A stretch of DNA of 61,939 nt, the filler included, from Fonticula-like sp. SCN 57-25 (Eukaryota), in NCBI GenBank assembly GCA_001724245.1. It is 7 parts of 7 records of this genome, joined end to end, with 100 filler letters (N's around TTAATTAATTAA, not from the genome) between each part and the next. Parts side by side here need not be neighbours in the genome. Positions count along the whole stretch, not along the records: positions 8,897 to 17,685 come from MEDX01000287.1; 6 more parts are not named here. One strand, written 5' to 3'. Positions within the stretch are counted from its first letter, which is position 1. Each line of letters starts with the position of its first letter. The notes below the pieces were generated by a model that saw nothing but the letters and a program-made list of their open reading frames with translations, did no database searches and was not told the DNA's origin. Position numbers and translations under genes: made by a program. Shown in pieces: positions 8,897 through 44,286 of the stretch.

Positions 8897-9241
8897 CACC
8901 CGCAACATACACGAAAACAACAAGAGCAAGCGTAGCAGCCCGCCCGGAAGGCATCATGGTCGTTTGGTAAACAACGCCCTTGGAAGGAAGGCAACATGCG
9001 GGTTTGTTTGGAAAAATTGATTTCGTGGCTCACTGTGATTGGTGCGCTAGATGTACCCCTGTAATCTTTGCAGGACGTATGATACGTGGCAAACTGTTCC
9101 ATGTAGCTTCAAAGGGTTCATTGTTCTTTATTATTTCGTCAGCCGTCATCTTGAAAGATTGACTACATTGGTTTTTAATGAAAGAAATCACGAACCGCCT
9201 TTTGCACGACTTCAGACGAGTCAACCTGTCAACGACAGGGT

Positions 9242-11477: not shown

Positions 11478-12294
11478 TTATTCTGTTGGTACAATGGCAA
11501 TACGCGGATGGCGCGCCACGTGCGCGCGCAGCCGCTCATAGTCTTCATCTCCCTCGACGGGCCCCACAATCACATTATAAAACTCGTGCATAAACTCTAC
11601 AATAATTCTGCCGTCCATAGTTGTGCTCCTTGCCGACTCGAGCCCGCTCTCGTGCACCATCAGCACCAGATCGCGGCACTTTTCCTGCGTCTTTGACAGC
11701 GCCGGCTGCACATACTCGACGTCGAGAACGCGAAAGCCGAGGCGGCCGAGAACACGCCGACGTTCCGCGGGCGGCATGACGTCACGGTCGGCGGCAACGC
11801 GGTCAGAGTTTGCTTCCAGGAAGAGCGCGCGGAGGGGGAGATCGCCCGCTGATAATGGGCTGTTAGTAGTGCACGCTATCAATAAAAGCAGCGCACCTCG
11901 ACAGGCCGACGAGATGGCGCTGGATAAACATTCTCGTACGAGCTTGCCCGCTGTGCGCACCACGCGTTAGATCCCCACCAGAGCAGATCACGCACGTACC
12001 GATGCCGCGACCGCGCGCGTGCTCGCTCACCACAATGTATGTCAAAAGTGCACATCGCGACACAGGATAGAATTCACATGCGGCGCCGCCGAGCAGCGCG
12101 TCGGTCTCTGCGTCGTAGATCAGGATGAGGGAGAGGTCGTACTCGACGGGATGCTGCAGTGCCCAGAGCATCGTTTTGATGTCCTCGAGCTCGTCCGGGT
12201 GCATGCCAAAGTTGGGGATCATGAGCTCTTCATAAAATTGCTCCACAAACGACCTGTCAAACTGCTGGTGCACGCGCACTATCTCTGTCTTCAT
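11478..12294 (-). CDS. GNAT-family N-acetyltransferase
   Basis: Exons 12294-12000, 11950-11897 and 11848-11478. Acetyl-CoA motif A LLTYIVVSEHARGRGIAGKL; LFLEAN and LGFRVLDVEYVQPAL. Confidence 0.8.
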
Positions 12295-12506
12295 TTTCTT
12301 GGAGATCCGCGCGGCGGCCGCGATGGGATGCTCTGACAAAACGCTGACAACAAAACGCTGACACACCATTCTGCCGCGGCGACTTTTGCACAGGGGGGAA
12401 GGGGCCGATGGTGATTCAACCTCCAGGGATGTGCTTCCCCTCCCCACTTTTCGGCTCCTGCTTCCCTTTGGGCAGCAAAGGGTCTTTTATCTAGTGTCTC
12501 GATCCG

Positions 12507-14978
12507 ATGGGCGGGATTGCAGCGTTCGCGGCCGTCGGCTGCCTGTGCGTCTTGCTATGCGTATCGCACGGCATCCTGTCGCAACAGGCGCTCATCGCGG
12601 GCATCGAGAGCGCGTCGACCCAGACAATCTCTCTATTGTTTGTGGCGTTTATCCAGGTTGCAGTCTGCGCGTTGTGCGCGCCGTCAGTTTGGGCGCGCGT
12701 GCGCGGCACTCCCTCCCCGCCGCTCTCTGATCAGCTGCCTGTCGTGAGCGTGTGGATGCAGGGCATCCTCGCGTACCTCTCGACGCTTCTGACATGCGCT
12801 TCCTACATGTTTGTCGGCGTCATTGTCACCCAGTCGGTCAAGTCAGTTTCGCCGCTCTTTGCCGTCATATTCGCCTACGCATCATCCTCGCGATCCCGCG
12901 GGATCGACGCCGCCTCCGCCGCCGAGATCGGCTCGATCCTCCTCATCTGCACCGGCGTCATGCTGCTCGTGCGTCCCTCTGACCCCGACGCCGTTTCATC
13001 CAGCTACTCGACCGGCGTCCTGCTCGGCCTCGGCGCCGCCGCCATCGGCGTCATCCGCTCATCGCTCGCCGACACTGCTGACCCTGCCCACGCAGCCAAC
13101 ACGGGTAGTATCCACATGGCCACTGCTGCTGTCGCGCTCTTTTCGCTGCTCATTGGGTGTGTCAGCGCGCCGTCCGTTATCTTTAATGCCTTTTTTGGCA
13201 GCGCGTCTGCCGCATCTTTCGCCGCCATTGCATTGTTCGCCGCCGCCGCCGGCCTCGCACTCGCCGCCCACTCGACCGCGTCCACGTGGCTTCTGTCACG
13301 CATCCCTATATCCACGTGGCCAAGTGTGCGGTCTGCCGAGTCGCCGGTTGCCGTGCTTGCCTGCCTGCTCTTTCTTTCCGGTGCACCAACCATCCACATG
13401 GCCGGTATCGCCGTCCTCTGCGCGGGCGCCGGTATCCACGTGGTCGCCTCTGCTGCCCAATCACTGCGCGGCCCAAAAACGCCTTTCAGTGCTTCGCGTC
13501 GCGGCCTTGTCACTGTCCTTGTCGCCGTCCTCCTCGTGGCGGCGCTGACACTGCGCAGCGTCCCATTGGCCACTTTCGACGCACCCGACGCCCTCACAAT
13601 CAAAGCATTCCAACTCAACGGCCACGTGGCGCTAGCACCTATCCTCCCACCCGCCCCCGGTCGCCCCTCTGCAGCCGCCCTCTCCAAAAACTATACCCTT
13701 TCCTGCTTTGGCGCCGAAGGCAACCTCGGCGACGACGGCCTCGCCATCATCTGCGGCCACGTGTTCGCCGCAGCCGCCCTTCGCGTTGGAATGTCGCTCA
13801 CGATTGTCCCGCCGAGCGCCGCCTCGCCCGACACTATTCTTGTCTTTGGCGGCGGCTCGATGCTCAATGTCGGCTGGGCGTTTGGCCAATGGAATCGCAC
13901 GCTCGCGCGCATCGGCGTCGATCGGCCGCGCCACGCGGTCTTTCTCTTTGGCGGCGGGTATGACGACAATGGGCTTACATGGACGCACGCGCGCGCCAAT
14001 GTCGACATCGCCGTCGGCAGTGTCGCATTGGCTCTGGCTAAAAATAACTTTATTTTGACGTCCGACGGCGAATTTTCTTCTGACGGCGCATTTTCCTCGG
14101 CATTTTCCCCTTCTAATCTGCCGCGACTTCCAATTGACCGCATTGGCGGGACAGTCACACAAGGCTGGCCGCGCCTCGCGCCACTTTTGTCCTTTGGCGG
14201 TGTCCGCGGACCACTCTCAGCCTATGCCTTTTCGCAAATTTCCCGCGAGGCAAACATTTCCTTTCCCGTCGCGCGGCGCGTCCTCGGCGACGCGGGCGTC
14301 TTTGCCGCCAAATACATTTCACCCGACTTTGAACTCGCGTCACTTTTCGCCGCCACGTCGAACGGCGCCACTCCACAATATGTCGTTTTTGTTATGGGCG
14401 CGTCTTCCGACGGCGGCTTTTTCGGCGCCGGCGACAAAAGCGACAAAAGCGCGGGAATCGCCGCCGAAGTCGACGCCTTTTCCGCCGCCGCGCAGCACCT
14501 TGTCCGAAAAGGGTACCACGTGGTGTTTGTCCCGATGTCGCGGAACGCGCCAGACGCACTTCTCGTCACTGGAATTGCGCAAAACTGCACGCTAAATATG
14601 CCGAGCGAGTATCACGTGCGCGTCTCATTCATAAAAAGTGTCCCGCCAATGCCAAAAATGCTCGGCTTAATGGCCAATGCCGCGGCCGTTGTCGCTCACA
14701 AGCTTCACGGCGGCGTCTTTGCAGGCGCAGTTGGAACGCCTTTTGTTGCAATTGCATACAGATTAAAGCATTATGATTGGGCGCTTTCAATTGACGCGCT
14801 TGAACTTGTTGTGCACCTTGAGGACCTCACGGCGGAAAGGCTTATTGAGAGGCTTGAATATGTGGAGAGGAATAGGGAGAGGATAAGGGCGCACTTGTTG
14901 GGGATGGTGGAAGTGTATGCGGAGAGATATGAAAGGGCGGCGGATGAGTATTTGAGACATATTCTAAGCACGCAATGA
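12507..14978 (+). CDS. Fusion: DMT-superfamily (TPT/EamA-like) multipass transporter + polysaccharide pyruvyltransferase domain
   Basis: 823-aa intronless ORF. About 10 hydrophobic helices with QSVKSVSPLFAVIFAY, then an extra TM. The C-terminal domain has GNLGDD, FGGGSML, GVRGPLS, LGDAG and HKLHGGVFAGAVGTPFVAIAY motifs of the PS_pyruv_trans (CsaB/WcaK/Pvg1) family. Confidence 0.8.
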   Translation: MGGIAAFAAVGCLCVLLCVSHGILSQQALIAGIESASTQTISLLFVAFIQVAVCALCAPSVWARVRGTPSPPLSDQLPVVSVWMQGILAYLSTLLTCASYMFVGVIVTQSVKSVSPLFAVIFAYASSSRSRGIDAASAAEIGSILLICTGVMLLVRPSDPDAVSSSYSTGVLLGLGAAAIGVIRSSLADTADPAHAANTGSIHMATAAVALFSLLIGCVSAPSVIFNAFFGSASAASFAAIALFAAAAGLALAAHSTASTWLLSRIPISTWPSVRSAESPVAVLACLLFLSGAPTIHMAGIAVLCAGAGIHVVASAAQSLRGPKTPFSASRRGLVTVLVAVLLVAALTLRSVPLATFDAPDALTIKAFQLNGHVALAPILPPAPGRPSAAALSKNYTLSCFGAEGNLGDDGLAIICGHVFAAAALRVGMSLTIVPPSAASPDTILVFGGGSMLNVGWAFGQWNRTLARIGVDRPRHAVFLFGGGYDDNGLTWTHARANVDIAVGSVALALAKNNFILTSDGEFSSDGAFSSAFSPSNLPRLPIDRIGGTVTQGWPRLAPLLSFGGVRGPLSAYAFSQISREANISFPVARRVLGDAGVFAAKYISPDFELASLFAATSNGATPQYVVFVMGASSDGGFFGAGDKSDKSAGIAAEVDAFSAAAQHLVRKGYHVVFVPMSRNAPDALLVTGIAQNCTLNMPSEYHVRVSFIKSVPPMPKMLGLMANAAAVVAHKLHGGVFAGAVGTPFVAIAYRLKHYDWALSIDALELVVHLEDLTAERLIERLEYVERNRERIRAHLLGMVEVYAERYERAADEYLRHILSTQ

Positions 14979-38689: not shown

Positions 38690-41600
38690 CTAACGAATGG
38701 ATTGCGAGGACGAGCTGGCACCATTCAATGGGGGAGGAACCGGGATGGGCGACGTCAGTGGTGGCGGAACCCCAGCGCGGTTGGTCATTGACCGGGGATC
38801 CACAGCGCGAGTGTTCAGCGGCGGAGGAGCCCCGCCAAGCGGCGAGGGAATACCGGCCAGCGGCGCAGGAATTCCAGCATAGGTCGGGGGCGGCGGAAGT
38901 CCAGTGGAAGGGGCCCGCGACAAGGGAAGAGGAACTCCTGGCCGCGCGGACGACGTCGTCGGCGATTGCATCGAAGGTTCAACCGAGAGCAGGTTGGAGT
39001 GCACGGTTTGAGCCGTCATACGAATGTCCATACGGGCGATTGTGCAGCCGTTGATGAGATTGACAAACATCGAGCGGATGTCGTCAGGGACTGTCGGAGG
39101 CGGCGTTTCCATAAAGAAGTGCGCGCAGGTGGCAGTCTCAATCTCGTCGTCGCTTGCATCGCCCCACGGAATCATGCGCATGTACAGCTCCCAGAGGACC
39201 ACGCCAAGCGCAAACATATCGGCGGCGCGGTCATCGATGCCGGTTGCAGGAATCCCAGGGTGGCGATAGCGAATAATGAGCTCAGGCGAAGCATAGCGGA
39301 TGTCGAGCTTTGAAACCGTCTTGTTCGGGGTGGGGTCCGAATCACCCCGCGCATCATGGAAGTCCGCGATGACAGGCACAGGGTAAGGCGAGAGGGACGA
39401 TGTTGCGTTCAGCAGGATGTTGGTGGACTTGATGCCGCGGTGGGCAATGTTCATGCTATGAATCGCATGAAGGCCAGCCGCCACGCCGGAACCAAGGAAG
39501 TGCAGCAACGGTGACTCGAGCGGCGGTGCCTTCTCTCCCTTGTGCAGGTAGCGATGGAGATTGATGGGGTACGAGCGCACGATGATGGTGCGCGGCTCCA
39601 GTGTGTAGCCAGCGAGGGCAACAATGTTCTGATGGAACGAAAGAGACCACATCAGATCGAGCTCGCGCAGGAACACCTCGCCGTTCTCCTCATCACTCAG
39701 AGCAGGGTTCGCCTCAAGCTCCTCGACCACGACGTCGGTGTAGCCGACGCGATCCACAATACGCTGGGCCAACAAGCGACCGCGAGAGAGGGAGCCTCGG
39801 CCGTGGCGAGCAGCGATAAGGGAGCCGACCTGGAGATCCGACGAGAAATCGCACTGGAGGTAGGGCGCAAGGCCGGCACCGGCCGACTTGACAGGCTTGC
39901 TTGTCTCCTCGCTGCTGCCGACAGACATCTGCGACATGGTAAACGACGGATTCGAGTCCCCAAGAAGCATGGTGCGGCTACGCTCCTCGCGATAAGCGCG
40001 CATCGCCTGCAGACCAGTCTCGCCTCCGAAGCGCTCAAACTTTTCCTTCGTTTTGCTCTTCTGCCGACGAATCAAAATAATCACAATCACGACGAGGATG
40101 AGAGCAAACACGACGGCGCCAGCACTTGCGCCAGCGATAATGGTGCCGCTAACGCCAAGACCAGGATCTGATACACGAGTAAGTTACCGAACCACACAGT
40201 TCAAGAGCAAAAACATACCGGTGGCCTCATGGCTGGATGCAACTGTAGACATCTGGGTACGAGATCCGGTGCTTTCTGTCGTATTTCCAAGGCCGGCCAA
40301 AACGAGCACCACGTAGCTGACGCCGGGTTCGAGATTCTCGATGGTAGCAATGCCTTCAGAAGCCGGCACATCGCCACTGATAATAAACCCATCCGATGCG
40401 TCGCGGACATCGTTACTCGACACGTAGCAGATTCGATAAAACTCTGCCTCAGCAGACGCTGTCCAGCTAAAGGAAAGGGAGGAATTGGTCGCCCCCTCAA
40501 GACGCAGAGCTCCCGGCGGAGAAATCTCAGTCTTGGCCGAAATAGTCATTGAAGCGAGGTCACTGTACGTATCTTCCAGGCCAGCGGTGACGCGGAACGA
40601 ATACTGCGAGTTGGGCGAGAGGCCAACAACCACATACTCGGGGGAAAGCAAATTAATTCCTCCACCGGTATTGGCCACCTGGAAGGCGGAAACGGCCGTA
40701 CCCACCTCGACCCTGTAGGAGGTTTCGTTGGTGACATTGTGCGACTGCCACATAAGCTTCACCGAGTTGGACGTGCGAGAAGCAACGGCCAAGTCGTAAA
40801 CCAAGCCGCCACTTTCCACGGGGAGGAGAGTGCACGGGTTCTCAAAGGAAGCCTCCCACTCGCCAGTAGCGGTGCACGTGCGCATCGGCGGGCCAGACTC
40901 TGAAACTTCATAGCCTGTTGGACACGTGCCAACGGAAACCATTCCAGGGGCAGTGGAGGGGAAATAGGTCATTCCGAGAGTCTCGCTGGGGCAGTTATCA
41001 TACTTGATCTGGCAAGGGTTCTCGATAGTGCTGTTCCAGGCGCCGTTCAACTGGCAGACTCGAACAGGAGTACCTGCGTAGCCCGAGACGCAGCTGCCGA
41101 CCGCAACAAGACCCGCTCCCGTCGCATTCCAGTTTGCGTTTCCATCCACACTCTGCGGACAGTATAGCACATCGCAGTTGTTTTGGATTTGGCCCCAGTT
41201 GCCAGAGGCGTCACAGGCTCGAGATGGGGTGCCAAAGAAGCCAGCCATACACTCGCCCGCAATGTTTGGCAGATTCGCATCCGCCGCAGGCCAGTCGGCA
41301 TTGCCGTCCTGAACAGCGGGGCACACAAGACGAACGCAGGGATTAATAATCCCCTCCCAATTGCCGTTAATGTCGCAAAGGCGAGAAGGGCTGCCCGCAA
41401 AGCCGACTTCACAGGTGGCAGCGGCAAGGCGCCCGGCTTCGGTGGTGGGCCAGGCGGGATTCCCCACGCCGGAAACCTGTCCGGCGCAGGTACGGGGGAC
41501 GCAAGGGTTCTCGATGGCGCTCCATGTGCCTGAGACCGTACATTGACGCAACGGTTCGCCGGTAAACCCAGGCGGGCATGTTCCAGCAACGAGACTGCTG

Positions 41601-44286
41601 CTCGGGGTTCCGGAAGGCCAATCGCCGTCGGCGTCGCTCAGGGCAGGACACACCGCTTGGACGCAAGGGTTGCGAACTTCAGAGAATGTACCAAACTCGG
41701 AACAGTTGCGTCTCGGCGAACCATGCCAGCCGGATGCGCACACGCCTGCAACATCGTTGGTCATGGACAAAGCAGATGGCCATTCCGCATTCTCAAAAGT
41801 CACCGCAGCACAGACAAGGCGATCGCAAGAACCAGTAACCTCGCTCCAAATTCCCTGCGCGGTGCATGAACGAGTAGGGGCCGTCTCTCCTCCGTATCCC
41901 GTAAGGCAGCGCCCAACAGCGACGGAGCCGGCGTTGATACCCGTCCATTCAATGTTGTTCTCAGTAACAGCGTCGCACACGATCTCCTCGCAGGTACCCT
42001 GAACAGCGCCCCAGAGACCATCCATAGAGCACACGCGGGTAACCGTTCCATAGTAGTTGGCGTGGCACGATCCCGTAACAGCAGCCCCGGCAGTTGTGCG
42101 CGGCCACGAAGACGTCGACTCGGTCACGGCGGAGCATTCCACAATAGTGCACGGATCCTGGATGGTACCCCATTCGCCAGTAATACTGCAGGCGCGCACA
42201 GGATCGCCTCGGTAGCCGGTCATGCACGAGCCGCCAGCAGTGGAGCCGGCCGTCATGCTTGGCCACGAAGCGTGGCCATCTTCGTCAATTGACGGGCACC
42301 AAATTTGTTCACAGGCAGGCTCCGGCACCGACCACACCAATTCGTAGGAGCATGAGCGAGAGGGTGATCCTTGATAACCAGCCACGCAGGTTCCTGAAAC
42401 GGAGGAACCAGACTGGAGGCTACTTGGCCACGTTGAGAAAAAGGAGCCATAGCTGGGAGACGCGTCGGTGCAGTGTGTCGGCAGACAGGGATCCGCAATA
42501 TCCGAGCCCCAGCGACCCGAGTCGTCACAGAGACGGGACGGGGTACTAGCGGATGCGAATCCTGTGACACACGTGCCGAAAACAGTAACATTTGACGTTT
42601 CCGGCATCTCCCAATCCGCATTGTGGTCATCAAAGAGGGCAGCGCAAGGGAGCGAGCTGCACGCGTTGTTCACGGCCGACCACGTGCCGTTCGCCGAGCA
42701 GCTGCGAGTGGGGAAGCCAGAGGTCTCCGGGTCGCACACGCCCGCTACCGCCGCCGTTCCAGCTTTCACCGACACCCACGAGGCCTTTGCAGCCGCGTCG
42801 TACGAAGCAGGGCAGTAGAGCTGGACGCACGAGCCTGAAATGCCCCCCCACGCTCCGTTGAGTCCACAGGAGCGGGTGGGAGTGCCGGACAAGCCTGCGT
42901 TGCAAGAGCCTGCTACGACAGTCGATCCAGCATTAGATGCGGGCCAAGACGCAAGCTGCTCAACAGTGGCAGGGCACTTGATCTGGGTGCACGTATTGAC
43001 GATCGCGCCGAAAACGCCGTCCGCATTGCAAGAGCGGGTGGGAGCACCAGAAAAGCCCGGAATACACTGTCCCGCTACTGATTCGAGCGAGTTCGTCTGC
43101 GCCCAGACAGCATTTCCTTCGGTGGTGCCGCTGCAGATGTTTCGAGTGCACACGGCGGTAAGAGAGCCCCACTCACCGGAAAGCAGGCACGAGCGCTTAG
43201 CGGGACCGGAATAGCCAGCAGTGCAGGTACCGTTAACGTCAGCGGTGCCGGCGGTAGCAACCGGCCAATTGGCCTGGTCAAGAAAACCAGCTGCACAGAC
43301 GACCTGCACACAGGGGCGGGACGTGGTCGACGCCCACGTTCCGCTCTCGCTGCACGCCCGCGTGGGACTTCCGCTGTAGCCGGCGACGCAGGTGCCCGTC
43401 GCGATGGTGTTGGAGGGTGTTAGGGCCGGCCACGAGGCGTTCTCAAATGAATCGGCCGGACAATAATTGCGCGTGCATGGCGAAGAGACCTCGGGCGACC
43501 AAGAACCGTAAATTTCGCAGCTGCGGGTTGGATTCCCCGAGTAGCCGGAGCGGCAAACACCCGTGGCAACCAAGCCAGCAACAGTCAAAGGCCAATCGGC
43601 GTTGGAATATTCGGTTTGCGCAGGACAAGAGAGCTGCATGCATTCGCCAACAATCGACAGCGCCCAAGACCCGGAGGCACTACACGTTCGCTGAGGATTG
43701 CCGGAATATCCCGCAAAGCAGGTGCCCATTGCAGTTGAAAATGCAGGCGTAGACGGCCAATCCACGTTGTTCATGACGTCCTCCATAGGCGCGCAAACAT
43801 TCTGCGTGCAAGGTGACGTCACAGGACCCCACGTGCCGGACAAGGTGCAGTCAGACTTTGGCGAACCAGAGTAGCCAGCGACACATGTGCCAGAGGCAGT
43901 AGTTTGGCTGTTGACTTGGGGGAAGCTAGCCGTGCCAATCGTAGTTGCCGGGCAAGTAATCCGAGTGCAGGGGTTGGTGACCTCTGACCATACGCCCAAA
44001 TCGCTGCAGGTACGCCGAGGTCCGCTCGACTTGTAACCCGACAAACAAACGCCATCGGCCGAGGTCCCAGCATTCGTCAAGGGGAATGATGCAAAGCCCG
44101 CGCTCGCGTCGGCGGGACAAGTTCTCTCTGAAACAAACGTTAGGAAGACGTCGTGCAGGGCCAAGGAAAACGCACTGGTGCATTGATTCTGAACTGCACC
44201 CCACACCCGGTTCGTGCACAACGATTTCGGCGCTCCTTGGAACGTTGGCAAGCAAGTTCCCGTGGCCGTGACGCCGCTGTTCGTAA
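38690..44286 (-). CDS. Single-pass receptor-like pseudokinase: >=20 HormR/sushi-like Cys repeats, 2 FN3, TM, TKL-like kinase fold, Pro-rich tail; 5' truncated
   Basis: ORFs 40184-44251 and 38690-40111 join via intron 40168-40218; in-frame intron at 44128-44175. Repeat consensus C-x-WP-x-T-x-G-x-C-xx-GY-x-G-x-P-x-R-x-C-xxx-G-x-W-x-C. Kinase motifs are HRGIKSTNIL, ADFH and RYASPEL. Confidence 0.85.

Follow-up and report, generated by a model that had tools for sequence, protein, structure and literature searches.

Can one polypeptide carry phosphoenolpyruvate (PEP) into the lumen and also use it there for the pyruvylation of surface glycans? This question is raised by P0001, a gene of Fonticula-like sp. 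SCN 57-25 (assembly GCA_001724245.1) that lies in the stretch of DNA analysed here (61,939 nucleotides, made of parts of seven records joined by filler, hereafter the window), and for which an earlier note had proposed a transporter fused to a pyruvyltransferase, coupling PEP import to pyruvate transfer. The fusion of the two domains in P0001 is real. The enzyme half keeps the active-site set of pyruvyltransferases and looks intact, and three of the four phosphate ligands of the transporter half are lost, so that PEP import by P0001 itself is doubtful. There is about an even chance that P0001 is a working pyruvyltransferase of the Golgi type whose attached transporter is degenerate or has been repurposed, and judging from the sequences the self-supply mechanism seems to fit the fusion family better than this copy.

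The open reading frame and its fused relatives

The open reading frame (ORF) of P0001 extends from ATG to TGA over 823 codons with no internal stop. A longer N-terminus or an intron was rejected, because the first transmembrane (TM) helix is complete and the reading frame meets a stop four codons ahead of the ATG; it is the uninterrupted frame and the full fold, rather than transcripts, that mark the gene as intronless. The sequences QSVKSVSPLFAVIF, SAESPVAVL and RGPKTPFSASRRG are all found in the translation. The frequency of C at third codon positions is about 0.4-0.57 over the first 720 codons and falls to 0.20 and then to 0.04 near the stop (14667-14978), where third-position G climbs to 0.43. 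No RNA run was among the 13 listed sequencing runs, a blank that says nothing about expression. Four of the 13 were compared with the P0001 region, and the junction of TM10, linker and TM11 was found to be crossed by a contig of X5 (13436-13586, with 0 other letters) and by a contig of X4 (13299-13590, with 22 other letters), from two studies that differ from that of the possible source. The only contig continuing into the enzyme domain belongs to X2 (13091-13753, unchanged letters), whose study is possibly that of the source; the figures of X3 are identical to those of X2, and X3 was not counted as independent.

A phmmer search over 1.84 billion representative proteins gave 191 matches at E ≤0.001, and among the best 150, which were listed, a multi-helix N-terminus followed by the enzyme domain was observed in five proteins, namely P0001, P0002, P0003, P0004 and P0005. 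P0003, encoded by an uninterrupted frame on a contig of its own (L001), is above both Pfam cut-offs (28 matches scanned). In a quick tree of 98 enzyme domains, which did not contain Pvg1p of Schizosaccharomyces pombe, the five fusions form one clade (Shimodaira-Hasegawa-like approximate likelihood ratio test, SH-aLRT, 96), nested in a 21-row clade (SH-aLRT 96) with all five EukProt proteins, of which four belong to named protists; the 21-row clade adjoins a group with two named Bacillota proteins, eukaryotic identity being fixed for the EukProt rows only. The open frame, the homologues and the junction contigs bear out the single fused ORF that had been proposed.

An alignment of 99 rows (A4: 97 of the 150 listed matches and two cluster mates of the transporter-only protein P0007, without long multi-domain proteins or fragments shorter than about 300 amino acids (aa)) yielded an AlphaFold2 model of P0001 with a mean predicted local distance difference test score (pLDDT) of 80 and a predicted template modelling score (pTM) of 0.61, superseding a first model from a four-row alignment (pLDDT 47) that gave generic GT-B matches only. 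The model displays ten helical segments within residues 3-321, in agreement with the roughly ten DMT/TPT-like helices noticed earlier, and the basic linker and 11th helix are recovered as well (model helix at 330-350, hydropathy 2.46). Linker, 11th helix and stem are of low confidence in the model, and no fixed contact or channel between the domains is seen. With TM limits set from the model and hydropathy, lysine plus arginine counts in predicted cytosolic and lumenal loops are 9:2 in P0001 and 52:8 over the five fusions. All four sequons that had been taken as a lumenal sign are present (N395, N463, N583 and N693), and three of the positions also occur in P0003; their number in P0001 alone is not beyond chance (4 vs 1.8 expected, P 0.09), and the sign holds over the five fused proteins, which carry 26 against 8.8 expected. 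The charge bias, the sequon excess over the five fusions and the positions shared with P0003, all of them computed, strongly indicate a lumenal enzyme domain, as the earlier note had suggested. Both termini of TPT proteins lie on one side of the membrane (bioRxiv 10.1101/169169) and the C-terminus of a diatom TPT located in the endoplasmic reticulum is cytosolic (PMC5635587; here and below, papers are cited from the portions of their text that were available), so that an 11th helix would put the enzyme in the lumen. By analogy with Pvg1p, P0001 is probably localised in the Golgi.

The enzyme half and the transporter half

Of all Pfam families, PS_pyruv_trans (PF04230) alone exceeds its cut-off on P0001 (33.4 bits, cut-off 25.3), and no glycosyltransferase family of Pfam matches the protein up to E 1. 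The 99-row profile finds Pvg1p (5AX7) at E 1.2e-12 among 18 matches up to E 1, the next being the heptosyltransferase 1PSW (3e-4) and WbbZ 6X1L (4e-4), and residues 394-823 of the model align to GT-B enzymes with the two-Rossmann fold at Z 14-19. The residue correspondences listed in Table 1 depend on numbering offsets between Pvg1p or CsaB and P0001 that were derived in this analysis and are consistent over four positions. Conservation over 96 related domains is high, with D409 in 91, R567 in all 96, H734 in 95 and K754 in 92, while position 732 is occupied by K in 39 and by R in 56. The D106A mutant of Pvg1p is almost inactive (PMC4872226), and R148, H308 and K328 are key residues of CsaB (PMC10435577). 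The assignment to the pyruvyltransferases therefore stands on the Pfam score, the profile match and the retained active-site residues, and the enzyme half of P0001 probably pyruvylates sugar chains.

The transporter half aligns over residues 1..321 to residues 103..404 of 5Y78, the TPT GsTPT2 (VIA-align Z 24.7, root-mean-square deviation (rmsd) 3.6, 287 residues), which is also rank 1 in Foldseek (E 4.4e-7). SLC35B1 is the second structural match at Z 23.5 (1.2 Z below 5Y78), nucleotide-sugar transporters reach Z 15.6-19.9, and YddG 5I20 lies below TPT at Z 17.3. A profile of seven relatives finds 5Y78 as its sole PDB sequence match (E 4.3e-5), and a hidden Markov model (HMM) of P0003 and P0007 gives P0001 84 bits and the reversed P0001 -14 bits. 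The Pfam TPT family (PF03151) gives P0001 16.5 bits (E 0.006) and does not reach its cut-off of 30, which is passed by the relatives P0003 (51.1 bits) and P0007 (79.5 bits). EamA (PF00892) is not among the four Pfam families that match P0001 up to E 1. The second transporter half had been described as EamA-like and without the KR pair; the pair is lost indeed, but the repeat is the C-terminal repeat of a TPT, and an EamA origin was rejected, as the profile finds 5Y78.

The phosphate ligands of GsTPT2 are K204, Y339, K362 and R363, every tested mutant of which lost most exchange activity, and the strict antiport of TPT proteins is tied to repulsion among three cations (bioRxiv 10.1101/169169). 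Mapped through the profile alignment, in which the columns of P0004 and P0002 are less certain, this quartet reads K112/H255/E278/S279 in P0001, with one of four residues kept, and is complete (K/Y/K/R) in P0003 and P0007; the remaining fusions carry R/H/H/Y (P0004), W/L/G/R (P0005) and R/S/E/R (P0002), each with at most one exact residue. R275 of P0001 lies one helical turn ahead of E278/S279, at a position occupied by an additional Lys in P0003 and P0007, the R-x-x-E pattern so formed is common to P0001 and P0002, and T is found at the TPT H185 position. The proposed coupling of PEP import to pyruvylation finds a candidate in P0003, with all four ligands, and is doubtful for P0001.

Differential divergence was also observed for the two halves. 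The transporter halves of P0001 and P0003 are 27% identical and their enzyme halves 43%, and the identity reaches 55% between the transporters of P0003 and P0007. Maximum likelihood (ML) distances of the transporter vs the enzyme half are 2.40 vs 1.42 for P0001-P0003, 3.66 vs 1.40 for P0003-P0004 and 6.0 vs 2.28 for P0004-P0005, so that the transporter half is about 1.7 to 2.6 times more diverged than the enzyme half among the four fusions with an intact enzyme; between P0003 and P0007, both with intact quartets, the transporter distance is only 0.93.

The source of phosphoenolpyruvate and the wider family

In the mechanism proposed here, the ten transporter helices would end in the cytosol, the 11th helix would cross back, and the flexible stem would hold the enzyme in the lumen, where it would move pyruvate from PEP onto a sugar of a surface glycan, freeing phosphate. 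The family may have originated from a TPT-type phosphate antiporter fused to a type II pyruvyltransferase; in such an ancestral cycle the antiporter would have brought PEP into the lumen against phosphate, a terminal sugar would have received its pyruvate ketal from the tethered enzyme, and the phosphate freed in this step would have gone out through the same antiporter. P0003 could still run the complete cycle of PEP import and transfer. P0001 most likely performs the transfer step only, a statement for which the balance is about level, with the folded transporter half most likely anchoring the protein in the membrane or acting as a partner subunit, and with PEP being delivered by a separate or paralogous TPT. 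For P0001 we infer the enzyme activity, the acceptor sugar and the loss of transport. As the fusion persists in P0001 despite the lost phosphate site, the architecture alone is no proof of self-supply.

Several observations weigh against this reading. By fold, 5AX7 ranks only 36 of 50 (Z 14.8, rmsd 3.6, 245 residues), being outranked by UDP-GlcNAc 2-epimerases (Z 19.4) and other GT-B enzymes; single-sequence phmmer with P0001 gives no Pvg1p match up to E 10; and the NCBIfam models of CsaB (TIGR03609) and WcaK (NF007452) score 27 bits vs a cut-off of 213 and 11 bits vs a cut-off of 399. The rate comparison comprises five fused sequences and P0007, with distances near saturation, and membrane domains can differ in evolutionary rate for other reasons. 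The transporter half is still a full 10-TM domain with pLDDT mostly 70-90, K112 is retained, R275 sits a single helical turn away from the missing pair, and P0002 has the same R-x-x-E pattern, which could mean a remodelled site instead of decay. A partner TPT was not found in a six-frame scan of the window, where the best other match has E 0.08.

Part of this evidence favours self-supply, in which P0001 would import PEP through a remodelled site (K112, R275 and H255), perhaps as a uniporter, and feed its own enzyme. The complete transporter fold, the kept K112, the placement of R275 where P0003 and P0007 carry the extra Lys, and the retention of the fusion across many eukaryotes are consistent with it, and fewer cations could loosen the antiport coupling, to extrapolate from the TPT work (bioRxiv 10.1101/169169). 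In that same work, however, mutating the four ligands strongly cut transport by GsTPT2; moreover, E278 reverses the charge of K362 and probably neutralises R275, and with linker and stem unstructured and a pTM of 0.61 the model contains no fixed inter-domain channel. Self-supply by P0001 is unlikely on balance, though it keeps appreciable weight.

A rather improbable alternative is that the transporter half has been retargeted to a nucleotide, to a nucleotide sugar for the acceptor glycan, or to a small monoanion, with no PEP import, the fusion linking two steps of one glycan pathway. It would account for the SLC35B1 match that nearly equals TPT (Z 23.5 vs 24.7), for the nucleotide-sugar transporters that come next, and for the R-x-x-E common to P0001 and P0002, but the sequence is clearly TPT-related by the P0003 and P0007 HMM, 5Y78 is the only structure found by the profile, and the substitutions differ among the four deviant members, which is more like relaxed constraint. 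Still less credit can be given to a PF04230 GT-B enzyme with another reaction, such as sugar transfer or epimerisation, in spite of the several epimerases and glycosyltransferases above Pvg1p in the structural ranking and of a family in which only three members had been biochemically studied by 2019, none close to the P0001 subfamily (PMC6801904): PS_pyruv_trans is the sole Pfam family above cut-off, the PEP-binding positions are kept, and the fusion partner of the domain is related to the phosphate/PEP translocators. An artefact of assembly or prediction, or two genes with separate transcripts, is hardly credible, for although the transporter is joined to the enzyme in one piece by the single X2 contig, four independent full-length homologues have the same layout (P0003 in one frame), TM10-TM11 is bridged in two other studies, and the fused enzyme domains are one clade.

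The fusion architecture is present in public data across eukaryotes and is not unique to the Fonticula-like genome. Besides the four other fused proteins among the 150 listed matches, the survey for the same fusion elsewhere led to one ESM Atlas cluster, the top cluster for both P0001 and P0003 (score 0.93, 198 of 256 features), which is labelled 'hypothetical protein' (613 aa, 60 members, PS_pyruv_trans 97%, TPT 93%) and whose members are all Eukaryota, most commonly Mollusca. In P0002 (722 aa), which exhibits the same 11-helix layout and five sequons, the catalytic Asp, His and Lys have been lost from the enzyme half, and by sequence this protein is probably an inactive pseudo-enzyme. P0007 and P0153-P0156 are five near-identical transporter-only proteins of 348 aa that end where the linker would lie; either they are a split form or the gene was cut short at an intron when it was called. 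Stand-alone PF04230 proteins of Endostelium, Ceratiomyxa, Diphylleia and Pharyngomonas (P0008, P0025, P0040 and P0044) group with the fusions, which hints that amoebozoans, CRuMs and heteroloboseans have pyruvylated glycans. P0117 (700 aa) is a sulfotransferase fused to a PS_pyruv_trans domain.

Word-index protein searches, which are insensitive, gave two matches of 8000 candidates each and did not retrieve the mollusc proteins. Scans with the narrow A3 DNA patterns gave one of 272 stretches in metagenomes, which is L001, the contig of P0003, and none of 33 in viral contigs or of 52 in prokaryote genomes, blanks that show little with such patterns. The fusion had been thought undescribed, and no description of a TPT-pyruvyltransferase fusion was found in the literature searched, which excluded most subscription journals and all supplements, although the architecture itself is in public data: the term 'pyruvyl' is absent from the first 300,000 characters of PMC11976392, the available parts of PMC8724618 and PMC5635587 do not mention the fusion, and the main text of PMC6801904, as far as available, is without 'fused' or 'fusion'.

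Pyruvate ketals make glycans negative, much as sialic acid does. Pyruvylated glycans of eukaryotes are recorded from S. pombe, algae, a sponge (adhesion proteoglycan) and Aplysia (nerve glycolipids), and yeast Pvg1p is the sole eukaryotic pyruvylation enzyme named in the available text of two reviews (PMC6801904, PMC6994554); given that only Pvg1p is named, the mollusc-rich two-domain cluster provides candidate genes for animal pyruvylation. A 2019 sequence survey was restricted to proteins of 250-600 aa (PMC6801904), a limit that would leave out fusions of 610-900 aa. Whether a single chain can both import the donor and carry out the transfer could readily be tested on P0003, and P0001 provides a caution and a natural control. 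We tentatively suggest, with somewhat less than even confidence, a eukaryote-wide and hitherto undescribed route to glycan pyruvylation in which a PEP/phosphate antiporter is tethered to an enzyme that uses PEP and returns phosphate; mollusc-rich members would supply the missing enzymes for glycolipid pyruvylation in Aplysia, and perhaps for the sponge adhesion glycans, and the nucleariid-like lineage would have split the jobs among copies that might complement one another (P0001, P0004 and P0005 enzyme-intact and transporter-altered; P0003 with both intact; P0002 enzyme-dead).

Gene neighbourhood, host and known systems

The neighbours of P0001 are a GNAT acetyltransferase gene, which stands head to head with it within about 200 bases, and a G-patch protein; a shared promoter for the GNAT gene and P0001 is possible, and a glycosylation gene cluster was not seen. 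A run of N (assembly gap) at about 9064-9108 lies some 3.4 kb upstream of the P0001 gene and leaves the fusion finding unaffected. Elsewhere in the window, the ORF with hormone-receptor stretches (Table 1) is directly upstream of an ORF with a TM segment and a protein kinase, and the two are probably one receptor kinase gene. The window genes are eukaryotic (clathrin, SecY/Sec61 and DENN by Pfam). In a quick one-gene tree of 28 clathrin heavy chains chosen from 120 listed matches, opisthokonts only and with a long Fonticula branch, the clathrin heavy chain of the window groups with that of Fonticula alba (SH-aLRT 97) and falls neither within fungi (100) nor within the group of animals and Capsaspora (100), and the host is probably a nucleariid-like amoeba (Rotosphaerida; PMC6492006).

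Table 1. Positions of P0001, its domains and diagnostic residues, and two other annotated genes in the window.
Feature	Position	Strand	Basis or remark
Fusion gene P0001: TPT-type transporter, 11th TM helix, stem, pyruvyltransferase domain	12507..14978	+	single ORF, 823 aa
Transporter half, 10-TM DMT fold, TPT type, residues 1-321	12507..13469	+	model vs 5Y78, Foldseek, profile, HMM
K112 = GsTPT2 K204, sole kept phosphate-binding residue	12840..12842	+	profile alignment
H255 at GsTPT2 Y339 position, changed	13269..13271	+	profile alignment
R275-S-A-E278-S279, with E278/S279 in place of GsTPT2 K362/R363	13329..13343	+	gap-free alignment to P0003, P0007
Basic linker, predicted cytosolic, residues 321-333 (R321, K324, R331, R332)	13467..13505	+	sequence, charge counts
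11th TM helix, predicted type II signal-anchor, about residues 334-352	13506..13562	+	hydropathy; model helix of low pLDDT
Pro/Ala-rich stem, probably flexible, residues 353-394	13563..13688	+	pLDDT <50 for 343-382
GT-B pyruvyltransferase-family domain (PF04230), predicted lumenal, residues 395-823	13689..14975	+	Pfam, profile, model
D409 of N-L-G-D = Pvg1p D106	13731..13733	+	profile alignment
R567 = Pvg1p R217 / CsaB R148	14205..14207	+	profile alignment
K732-L-H734 = Pvg1p R337/H339, CsaB R306/H308	14700..14708	+	profile alignment
K754 = CsaB K328 / Pvg1p K361	14766..14768	+	20 residues from the His, the spacing of CsaB; not in the part aligned to 5AX7
GNAT acetyltransferase (Acetyltransf_1, E 5e-5), apparently intron-split	11478-12447	-	Pfam
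ORF with 13 hormone-receptor (HRM) stretches, Sushi, ephrin-CRD, FN3	38690-44251	-	Pfam

Compared with known systems, the transporter half of P0001 resembles the plastidic TPT/PPT/GPT proteins (GsTPT2, 5Y78) in its 10-TM DMT fold and in the kept K204, and differs from them in scoring below the Pfam cut-off, in being without Y339, K362 and R363, in the T at the H185 position, and in having no transit peptide, an opisthokont host and a C-terminal enzyme. The bacterial CsaB, WcaK and WcfO act in the cytoplasm. P0001 has in common with them the PF04230 domain and the matching PEP-binding Arg, His and Lys, whereas it scores far under the equivalog cut-offs of CsaB and WcaK; CsaB and WcfO act on lipid-linked intermediates (PMC6801904). 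The mollusc-rich Atlas cluster of 60 members, known by its domain annotation alone, contains the same two domains in proteins about 200 residues shorter, and the stand-alone protist PF04230 proteins belong to the same enzyme clade as the fusions, several of them with one N-terminal hydrophobic segment, but have no transporter domain. A functional parallel is found in S. pombe, where the Golgi transporters Pet1p and Pet2p belong to the TPT family. There, Pvg1p is a type II GT-B pyruvyltransferase that obtains its donor from these separate transporters (PMC4872226, PMC6801904); P0001 is like it in the GT-B pyruvyltransferase domain, the predicted type II anchor and the D/R/(R,K)-x-H/K set, and unlike it in belonging to a distant subfamily (14% identity in the structural alignment to 5AX7, with K for R337) and in combining enzyme and transporter in one polypeptide.

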